Below are positions 8,197 through 9,334 of a DNA stretch of 64,000 nucleotides, piece by piece; within the stretch, counting starts at the first letter, position 1; each line of letters opens with the position of its first letter. The notes beneath the pieces are model-generated. The model did no database searches. It saw only the letters and a program-made list of their open reading frames with translations, and was not told where the DNA came from. The translations under genes were made by a program, and so were the position numbers. The DNA comes from a virus: IMG/VR virus record IMGVR_UViG_3300045988_175774; one strand, given 5' to 3'.

Positions 8197-9334
8197 CAAT
8201 AGTTATTAACTGTAAGCTTTTTATCTTACACTCTGGAGATTACTCTCATTTTCATTAGTTGGTCAATTCCAACCCAGTTTAGCATAACTTCTCTTCCATT
8301 CCATTTTTTATTTGGAAGTTGCAGACTCGTGGTTTTATTATATTCTAATATTTATTAGAAACAATACTATTAATATTGTTTCTTTGTAACCATTTTTTAT
8401 ATTTATAATATTTTCTTAGTAAGAAAATATTATTAAGATCATACATTTTATCAAGGATTTTTTTTGCATCTTTAGTAGAATAAGTTAGCGTATAATAATT
8501 TTTTCTGCTCTTATCTTTACGCACCTCTCTACTACCATTACAAACACTATTTAAAATTCGGGAAAAATTTTCCAATAACTCTGGTCTATAAGAACAAATT
8601 TCAAGGCGAAATGCAGTGCCATCATCTTTAAAACAGCCATCTCCATCAAAGTAACCTAAAATAAAACTTAATTGTTTATTAAAATCAAAATTAGGTAATT
8701 CCATTTTTTTATAAGTTTTATTTGGAACAATTCCATATTTAGCTAATTGTTTTTTATGATTTTCGCTACTCCAAGACAATTCAGATACTTTAAAACCATT
8801 ACTAGTTTCATAATCTAATATGTCTCTTTCACTCTCTATCATTATTTTAATTTTTTCTAATATAGATCTGTCTACTGAGCTTAGTCCTATTTTAATGCGG
8901 TTTCTGTCTTTTGAAACATTACCATCTGCTGCTAAAAAACCTAATAGCCAGGCTTTTTCATTAGAATCTATATTATCAAAATAATGATGATTAACCTTAA
9001 GACCTCTTTCTTGGTTTGCTATTCTATTTTGCTCTGCTCTTGTCCGTATTCTAATTCCATTCTTTATAAGAATAGATTTAATTTTTCCTCCATATGTGTC
9101 ATATTTATTTGCAATAAAACTCAAAGATTTCCCTTCACTGTATAATTTTATTATTTCTTGGACGTCCATATGTGTACATGCCTTTCATAAATATTAGTTT
9201 CAAAAACTATGCGTTGCGTGTGTTATTCTTTTTAAAGAATAACTTCCCTTCGGATTCTCCTAATATAATAGGATTCTTTCCGCCTTTTCTGCAATGTTTG
9301 CTCTATAATTACTTATAGAGAGAGCAGTTATTTA
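8197..9334 (-). mobile_element. putative group I intron carrying a LAGLIDADG homing endonuclease ORF, inserted in the Walker A codons of the ATPase gene
   Basis: A ~1.14-kb intervening sequence. The upstream exon ends in U and the intron ends in G (omega G) directly before GGT AAA ACG. The ~150-nt flanks are GC-richer than their surroundings. There is no RBS for the downstream exon. Confidence 0.55.
8345..9169 (-). CDS. LAGLIDADG homing endonuclease (intron-encoded)
   Basis: Two LAGLIDADG motifs: LLGFLAADGNVS and ILGYFDGDGCFK. Confidence 0.8.
   Translation of the reverse strand: MDVQEIIKLYSEGKSLSFIANKYDTYGGKIKSILIKNGIRIRTRAEQNRIANQERGLKVNHHYFDNIDSNEKAWLLGFLAADGNVSKDRNRIKIGLSSVDRSILEKIKIMIESERDILDYETSNGFKVSELSWSSENHKKQLAKYGIVPNKTYKKMELPNFDFNKQLSFILGYFDGDGCFKDDGTAFRLEICSYRPELLENFSRILNSVCNGSREVRKDKSRKNYYTLTYSTKDAKKILDKMYDLNNIFLLRKYYKYKKWLQRNNINSIVSNKY

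Follow-up and report, generated by a model that had tools for sequence, protein, structure and literature searches.

The viral record IMGVR_UViG_3300045988_175774 of IMG/VR was analyzed over a stretch of 64,000 nucleotides, which we refer to as the window. On its minus strand lies a gene for a Sak4-like ATPase of the AAA_24 type that is interrupted within the codons of its Walker A motif. The interrupting segment carries an open reading frame (ORF) for a LAGLIDADG homing endonuclease between two non-coding flanks, which we read as the two halves of a group I ribozyme. The locus is laid out as follows.

9423..9334, minus strand: exon 1 of the Sak4-like/AAA_24 ATPase gene, 30 codons, ending ...GEPKS, with U9334 as its last base
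9333..8197, minus strand: insert read as the whole group I intron, 1,137 nt, starting AAAUAACU and ending ...CUAUUG, with the omega-G at 8197
9333..9170, minus strand: 5' half of the ribozyme, which also contains the ribosome binding site (RBS) of the endonuclease gene, GAAAGG
9169..8345, minus strand: LAGLIDADG homing endonuclease ORF, 274 amino acids, with its own ATG and the RBS GAAAGG
8344..8197, minus strand: 3' half of the ribozyme
8196..7255, minus strand: exon 2 of the ATPase gene, opening GGT AAA ACG ACG (GKTTIATKF...), 313 codons and a stop

Exon 1 starts with an ATG at 9423, encodes MGIDLLNIKPHQVSRDLRGYSVFFYGEPKS and closes with the T of AGT at 9334. Beyond it, the minus-strand frame in the ORF list runs only through AAA TAA and then ends. 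As had been proposed from the sequence at the outset, an RBS (AAGAGGAAA, at 9439..9431) lies upstream of the exon 1 ATG, while exon 2 is immediately preceded by a G (G8197) and has no Shine-Dalgarno sequence in the minus-strand stretch CAGTTAATAACTATTG upstream of it. The original prediction also gave the correct layout of exons and insert, but its coordinates for exon 1 (9424..9335) were shifted by one base; the correct ones are 9423..9334, with the insert at 9333..8197.

When the exons are joined, they encode a 343-amino-acid AAA_24/Sak4-like ATPase whose P-loop, GEPKSGKT, is intact across the junction. Pfam AAA_24 aligns with the joined protein in one piece across the junction (residues 19-221, model positions 2-195 of 195, E 4e-37, 128 bits), and PHROG 124, 'Sak4-like ssDNA annealing protein', matches it with an E value of 8e-50. 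A full-length AAA_24 match that includes the Walker A motif is obtained only after the exons are joined. These data agree with the earlier proposal that splicing re-creates the P-loop. The insertion point is in phase 0, at the Ser/Gly codon boundary of the Walker A motif, between GEPKS and GKT.

The existence of an intron-less allele fixes both boundaries to a single base. Identity between the window and phage contig L005 is 98.1% over 12426..9334 and 98.6% over 8196..4257, and what L005 lacks is precisely the 1,137 bases 9333..8197. The L005 junction reads GAGCCTAAGAGT followed directly by GGTAAAACG, with no bases between, in the context ...GGAGAGCCTAAGAGTGGTAAAACGACG... The boundaries cannot slide because the bases that flank the junction differ (T and A at the 5' end; in the intron-less form G and G, preceded by T). 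Exon 1 is 100% identical in the two alleles over its 90 nt, and the L005 protein is contiguous with the joined window protein over residues 1-343 (100% by tblastn, rounded; the printed translation has one change, K to R at 340). An allele 98% identical to the window and without exactly these bases establishes that the Walker A codons hold an intervening sequence, as was originally claimed. The same prediction described the flanks of the ORF as GC-enriched. Their GC fractions (0.317 and 0.318) are enriched relative to the endonuclease ORF (0.265) only, and not relative to the whole window (0.308) or the exons (0.34).

When viral contigs were scanned with the joined protein by tblastn, 80 loci were returned, and the ATPase gene is uninterrupted in about 74 of them. 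Enterococcus phages whose protein is 52% identical also have an uninterrupted gene. At the window's insertion site, homologous introns are found in L006 and L001 (92% identity over all 1,137 nt), in L002 (81%) and in L024-L026 (74%), and L109 is a further lineage with an intron at this site. A megablast search of the locus against 50,697 phage records gave no match, so there is no close cultured relative among these records.

The ORF that had been noted within the insert is indeed that of a LAGLIDADG protein. Its 274-residue product matches Pfam LAGLIDADG_3 in two stretches (E 5e-17, 62.4 bits against a cut-off of 22.5) and PHROG 4645 (E 3.5e-51), and it has a weak match to a solved enzyme, 2DCH (E 1e-4). 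The single chain contains two motifs, LLGFLAADGN and ILGYFDGDGCF, as well as an N-terminal helix-turn-helix-like region. The ATG lies 164 nt downstream of exon 1. All five orthologous introns have an intact endonuclease ORF, and four of the five keep both motifs. The exception is L006, in which the second motif reads FDGNG rather than FDGDG. This Asp-to-Asn change may have cost the L006 enzyme one catalytic acid, which would make it a possible nickase, maturase or decaying enzyme. A candidate substrate for cleavage is the intron-less junction of L005, GAGCCTAAGAGT followed by GGTAAAACGACG.

We mapped the helices of the ribozyme onto the two flanks as listed here.

9328..9326, minus strand: P10 partner, ACU
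9325..9321, minus strand: internal guide GCUCU, the 3' strand of P1
9320..9313 and 9308..9301, minus strand: P2
9294..9288, minus strand: 5' strand of P3, UUGCAGA
9282..9279 and 9254..9251, minus strand: P4
9273..9269 and 9262..9258, minus strand: P5
9243..9235 and 9230..9222, minus strand: P6a
9212..9208, minus strand: 5' strand of P7, GCAUA
9207..9203, minus strand: 5' strand of P7.1, GUUUU
9197..9187, minus strand: 5' strand of P7.1a (strands CUAAUAUUUAU and AUAAAUAUUAG)
8336..8332, minus strand: 3' strand of P7.1, AAAAC
8332..8326, minus strand: invariant CCACGAG
8325..8319, minus strand: 3' strand of P3, UCUGCAA
8318..8313 and 8298..8293, minus strand: P8
within the 3' half, minus strand: J8/7, AGAAGU
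8286..8282, minus strand: 3' strand of P7, UAUGC
8277..8275 and 8235..8233, minus strand: CUG/CAG stem
8274..8269 and 8262..8257, minus strand: P9a
8247..8236, minus strand: P9b, with a GUAA loop
8230..8225 and 8216..8211, minus strand: P9.1
8197, minus strand: omega-G

The ORF occupies the terminal loop of P7.1a, and its last codons and stop (8355..8345) form the 3' strand of that helix.

A profile hidden Markov model was built from nine relatives in other genes only, none of them at the insertion site of the window. Run with nhmmer on the 64 kb, it gave exactly two matches, which share the minus strand and follow each other as in the model: 9326..9193 (model positions 8-137, E 7e-8) and 8348..8198 (model positions 141-293, E 4e-33). 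Because the profile matches both collinearly, the two non-coding flanks are halves of one ribozyme, parted by the endonuclease ORF.

Covariation was examined in a family alignment of 15 sequences, from which the ORF loop of the window-type members had been removed. On this alignment, RNAalifold predicts P4, P6, P7, P7.1, P8 and four stems in the P9 region, with 31 of 47 pairs compensatory. In a 48-pair model of the same sequences, 96.5% of cells are paired, compared with 36-41% when partners are slid by 1-3 columns. Compensatory change on both sides is found in 31 of the 48 pairs, and none of 500 shuffles reaches the observed values. As P3 and P7 together make up the group I pseudoknot, P3 cannot be predicted jointly with P7, and it was tested by an anchored search since MAFFT misregistered its 5' strand (MAFFT also misaligned P5). 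For the 7 nt right after the invariant CCA[AC]GAG, the single best complement (6-7 of 7 bases) lies 4-7 nt upstream of P4 in all 17 sequences searched, and 11 different P3 sequences occur among these 17. The helices follow the group I core order P3-P4-P5-P5'-P4'-P6-P6'-P7-P3'-P8-P8'-P7'-P9, with the P3/P7 pseudoknot.

The pairings with the exons vary in step with the host gene. P1 covaries with the exon, being AGAGU/GCUCU in the window and GUGGU/GCCAC, CACGGU/GCCGUG or GGAAAU/GUUUCC in other genes, and all four P1 types place a U.G wobble at the splice site (U9334 opposite G in the window). P10 ranges from 3 to 6 bp: GGU/ACU in the window, GGUA/UACC in the ortholog L002 and 5-6 bp in other genes. 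An exon U precedes the intron in every member whose 5' junction was read, and every member read ends in G. Among six same-site orthologs, the full structure (P1, P10, P2-P5, P6a, P7, P7.1, P7.1a, P8 and the P9 stems) is 97.6% paired, compared with 37-43% when slid, and P1 is 100% paired. Fourteen pairs are compensatory in this set, including three in P7.1a, whose 3' strand is coding.

Within the core, none of the 15 sequences varies in the first two pairs of P7 (G-C and C-G), J8/7 reads AGAAGU or AAAAAGA, and J6/7 reads GCAAC. P7 of the window intron may hold the guanosine-binding site. A peripheral hairpin between P7 and P3' (P7.1/P7.1a or P7.1/P7.2) is a trait of subgroup IA. The window intron has an extra hairpin at this position, and Rfam alignments show an insertion at that same point. 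By its predicted fold, the intron is IA-like, with its ORF in the P7.1a loop.

Several observations weigh against a group I assignment. The Rfam model RF00028 (Intron_gpI) found no match in the whole window at the gathering threshold, nor in 8100..9450 at E<=10. L094, a close relative without an ORF, gave only a local match to P4-P5 of that model (E 3.2, 10.8 bits). P7 reads GCAUA/UAUGC in place of the usual GACUA/UAGUC and has no evident bulged base. The automatic alignments give P5 little support (71% paired among the orthologs), probably due to misalignment. Finally, the 15-sequence family alignment spans only about 11 lineages.

The search with Intron_gpI in Infernal had been suggested along with the original prediction as a check, and it came back empty. 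RF00028 also misses the intron of L007, a control that has an HNH ORF and P, Q, R and S elements of textbook form (AAATTGCGGGG, AATCCGCAGCC, GGTTCAACGACTAGG and AAGATATAGTCTGA). It likewise misses 17 loci that hold family members, L094, the ORF-less introns annotated in phage AR9 gyrA and the intron of phiR1-37. Because the model fails on this control and on the relatives, we treat its null result on the window as uninformative.

Further members of the family connect it to canonical group I introns. When genome contigs of bacteria and archaea were scanned with a sequence pattern, 23 additional members emerged, mostly on contigs assigned to Firmicutes, and several relatives (L123, L125, L127, L128 and L133) have the canonical P7, GACUA/UAGUC. 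On RF00028, where the threshold is 50 bits, L128 reaches 81.8 and L125 reaches 74.8, and both can be aligned with the family profile from model position 25 to 292 with E values of about 1e-29. The Rfam structure line agrees on the placement of P7, the insertion, P3', P8, the P7 3' strand and P9. Because L128 and L125 bridge the family to RF00028, the window intron is placed in a branch of true group I introns with an altered mid-P7 (GCAUA/UAUGC or GCGUA/UACGC). The altered P7, together with the ORF, is probably the reason that the general model fails. The proposal that a group I intron makes up the flanks of the LAGLIDADG ORF is therefore upheld by the family profile, by covariation from P1 to P10 and by relatives that reach 75-82 bits on RF00028.

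The same ribozyme is found in other phage genes. A 27-mer from its 3' half, CCAGAGTGTAAGATAAAAARCTTACAG (8210..8236), with A or G allowed at one position, occurs in 24 viral contigs. The relatives that bear it are compact, at about 270-360 nt, and many have no ORF. Family members lie in the following genes.

L096 and L109: at the window's own site
L093, L103, L104 and L108: other Sak4-like genes, at a site one codon on, between G and K
L102: another P-loop gene
L094, L098, L105 and L106: topoisomerase II subunit A, at a site between HPHG and D
L095 and L101: anaerobic ribonucleotide reductase (NrdD)

Among annotated phage genomes, the family is present in the gyrA genes of AR9, PBS1 and phiR1-37. 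GenBank annotates the AR9 gyrA coding sequence (g044) as a join of three segments, and the two introns between them belong to the family.

The location of the ORF varies from member to member. It lies in the P7.1a loop in the window type, in the P8 loop in L098 and L105, near the 5' end in P1/P2 in L100, L106 and phiR1-37, and in the P5 loop, as an HNH ORF, in L097. These varied positions point to repeated, independent capture of endonuclease genes. L111 was also listed among the members compared for ORF position. Two different group I introns about 300 nt apart (4060..4290 and 4573..4857) interrupt one anaerobic ribonucleotide reductase gene in L101, and L107 has a similar arrangement. In each of these pairs, one intron belongs to the window's family and the other scores 66-69 bits on RF00028.

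Taken together, we consider it highly likely that the 1,137-nt insert is a mobile group I intron that carries a homing endonuclease gene in the Walker A codons of a Sak4-like ATPase. The guide GCUCU would pair with the exon end AGAGU, placing the splice-site U in the U.G wobble of P1, and the core would fold from P3 to P8, including the P3/P7 pseudoknot. An external guanosine would attack after U9334, G8197 would then dock in P7, and P10 (GGU/ACU) would hold exon 2 while the exons are joined into the mRNA for the 343-residue ATPase. The stop codon two codons into the intron, ahead of the guide, would keep ribosomes out of the core. The endonuclease, made from its own RBS, would cut intron-less alleles near the junction of GAGCCTAAGAGT and GGTAAAACG during mixed infection, and repair off the intron-bearing genome would copy the intron in (homing). 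Guanosine-initiated splicing, cleavage of the intron-less site and repair-mediated copying are predicted here from the structure of the locus and from known introns of this kind.

The likeliest alternative, itself very improbable, is a decayed intron that no longer splices and leaves the ATPase gene a pseudogene. Splicing of the window intron is predicted from sequence, and its P7 departs from the common consensus and is not scored by RF00028; however, the window copy has all helices intact, its endonuclease ORF is intact, and the exons are undamaged, encoding the protein of the intron-less allele but for one C-terminal residue. Moreover, five diverged orthologs (74-92% identity) maintain the pairing by compensatory changes, which argues for selection on the fold.

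Marginally less probable again is that an endonuclease gene landed in the ATPase gene without any RNA splicing, so that the pieces (31 and about 313 amino acids) are translated separately and either reassemble or are non-functional. Free-standing endonuclease genes that split phage genes do exist, as in Aeh1, whose nrdA is reportedly split by mobE. A TTG at 8199 opens an ORF that starts MGKTT, and the lack of an Rfam intron match in the window also fits such a split. Yet an endonuclease gene needs none of the 312 non-coding bases around the ORF, which have a conserved, covarying fold with group I topology, and the same RNA occurs in other genes without any ORF, including the annotated AR9 joins. 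Exon 2 also lacks an RBS, and a split of the gene would land in the middle of the P-loop.

The least probable alternative, another kind of intervening element, has next to no standing: P-loops are classic intein sites and LAGLIDADG genes are found in inteins and in a few group II introns (in part, PMC12350094), but the ORF is not continuous with the exons, which argues against an intein, as do the stop two codons past exon 1 and the separate ATG and RBS 164 nt downstream, and a group II intron is opposed by the absence of any Rfam group II match in the window (gathering threshold) or the region (E<=10), by an ORF that is LAGLIDADG and not reverse transcriptase, by a non-coding RNA that at 312 nt is far too small, and by a start that reads AAAUAA and not GUGYG. 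On this evidence the intein, the group II intron, the split by a free-standing endonuclease and the pseudogene were all set aside. The mobile group I intron is the reading we retain.

The closest known counterparts of this intron are the gyrA introns of the Bacillus jumbo phages AR9 and PBS1 and the Yersinia phage phiR1-37, which belong to the same ribozyme family throughout the core. Common to all are GCAACGCAUAG, P7.1 with UGAA...AAUAUAAU, CCANGAG followed by P3', AUAUGCUA, GAUGAAAAUGAG and a hairpin CCAGAG..UA.GAUAAAAA. These introns likewise follow an exon U and end in G. The host gene differs, being topoisomerase II subunit A in these phages and a Sak4-like ATPase in the window, and the guides differ from that of the window, each matching its own exon. 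The ORF differs as well: the AR9 copies have none, that of phiR1-37 is near the 5' end (P1/P2), and that of the window is in P7.1a.

Group I introns with homing endonuclease genes have long been known in DNA-metabolism genes of large phages (PMC3984707, PMC3943268, PMC11878797). Like the classical examples (T4 td with I-TevI, nrdB and sunY; SPO1 DNA polymerase with I-HmuI; Twort and Staphylococcus phage K; Bastillevirinae, PMC11878797), the window intron lies in a conserved motif of a DNA-metabolism gene, carries its ORF in a peripheral loop, has an extra hairpin between P7 and P3' and an early in-frame stop, and is variably present among close relatives. It differs from them in its P7 (GCAUA/UAUGC rather than the classical GACUA/UAGUC), in going unscored by RF00028, and in encoding a LAGLIDADG enzyme where phage introns mostly encode HNH or GIY-YIG enzymes. 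The LAGLIDADG endonucleases encoded by introns of Staphylococcus Twort-like phages, for example in the recA-like gene of Romulus and Remus, are annotated as intron-encoded and are homologous to that of the window over 91% of the length at 29-32% identity. Both are found within genes for recombinases or replication proteins of large Firmicutes phages, although the target gene and site in the Staphylococcus phages differ from those of the window. A further parallel is gp210 of PhiPA3 (PMC11620839), which is likewise the endonuclease of a mobile intron in an essential phage gene and is able to cut the intron-less allele of a related phage. That enzyme, however, is of the HNH type, and the gene in which it lies codes for an RNA polymerase of a Pseudomonas jumbo phage. 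A literature search aimed at introns in Sak4-like genes found no published case. For a large lytic phage, the window element as such is ordinary; its host gene and site are apparently new, and the ribozyme family is already in GenBank in the form of the annotated AR9 joins.

Upstream of the ATPase gene, at 10462..9480 on the minus strand, is a gene for a 317-amino-acid protein of PHROG 2367, which has no known function. Its C terminus, ...NGGFNF, resembles the acidic/aromatic tails of single-stranded DNA-binding (SSB) proteins that partner with recombinases. A terminator-like hairpin, TTGGGAGC-TTA-GCTCCCAA with a run of T, follows this gene at 9505..9480. A free-standing gene for a GIY-YIG/NUMOD1 endonuclease (11180..10443, minus strand) lies between the SSB-like gene and the next. 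The segment 11253..10480 is present in L005 and absent from L006, L007 and L009. It is a second presence/absence mobile element, independent of the ATPase intron.

A second intron in the window appears at the Toprim motif of gyrB, as an insert at 19327..18234 between exons 20832..19328 and 18233..17831, all on the minus strand. The last residues encoded by exon 1 are ...IIIMSDADV, its final bases being GACGU (U at 19328), and G18234 closes the insert. Exon 2 then runs on as (U)GAUGGUGCUCAC, restoring DADVDGAHI and a 635-amino-acid GyrB. The insert contains a GIY-YIG ORF (18401..19180) and an S-like element, AAGAGAUAGUCAG; neither Rfam nor the ATPase-intron family profile gave a match within it. 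The joined GyrB matches uninterrupted genes in L136, L138 and L139 over residues 1-635. Two close relatives, L137 and L141, match it only up to residues 511-515, and their gyrB genes appear to be interrupted at about the same place.

Other observations concern mobile elements elsewhere in the window and its relatives. L007 (about 5557..6570) and L009 have an insertion of about 1 kb in a gene for a DnaB-like helicase, which is probably another intron or intein and which the window lacks (about 5640, in the gene at 5133..6671). The gene thyX (11777..12457) is directly preceded by a 268-amino-acid ORF (13286..12480, minus strand) in which a GIY-YIG domain is confined to the C terminus (residues 174-260); this ORF may be another mobile endonuclease gene or a fusion. 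The window also holds 31 tRNA genes at 43331..57445, all on the minus strand with small ORFs interspersed. Adjoining the array, at 27871..43232 on the minus strand, is an unusual set of genes that includes the following; vault-like domains are uncommon in phage.

27871..29115, minus strand: RNA ligase
30758..33241, minus strand: 827-amino-acid protein with major-vault-protein shoulder and repeat domains
33369..34571, minus strand: AAA_5 ATPase
35640..37238, minus strand: SPFH/flotillin protein
41751..43232, minus strand: DUF2828/DUF7788 protein

The intron has consequences for annotation. Gene callers would report a 31-amino-acid fragment, an endonuclease and an N-terminally truncated ATPase, while the predicted real product is a 343-amino-acid Sak4-like recombinase; gyrB in the window would need a similar correction. 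Because a family that includes the AR9 gyrA introns escapes RF00028, surveys based on this model undercount phage introns, a concern that the authors of a recent survey share (PMC11878797).

Three alleles of the ATPase locus occur in phages that are 96-98% identical: no intron (L005), the LAGLIDADG intron (the window and L006) and an unrelated HNH intron (L007 and L009). The HNH intron (2005..3000 in L007) lies between GGT and AAAACG, 3 nt downstream of the point at which the window's intron is inserted, and has the guide UUUUGCCAC. L093, an ORF-less member of the window's ribozyme family, uses the site and guide of the L007 intron in a more distant Sak4-like gene.

We tentatively combine these results into a broader reading, which we judge to have somewhat less than an even chance of being correct as a whole. 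A diverged IA-type branch with a rewired P7 (GCAUA/UAUGC), undetected by Rfam, would have spread through the P-loop ATPase, topoisomerase II and anaerobic ribonucleotide reductase genes of phages, mostly on Firmicutes-assigned contigs, with endonucleases in different loops. At the Sak4-like gene, its site would overlap that of the HNH intron 3 nt away, and the alleles would be kept by competition. If this is true, each intron destroys the target of the other, and the three alleles are maintained by competition between co-infecting phages. The intron endonuclease of PhiPA3 has been described as a weapon in interference competition between co-infecting phages (PMC11620839). The Sak4-like locus would offer a natural system for asking whether intron endonucleases serve as such weapons.

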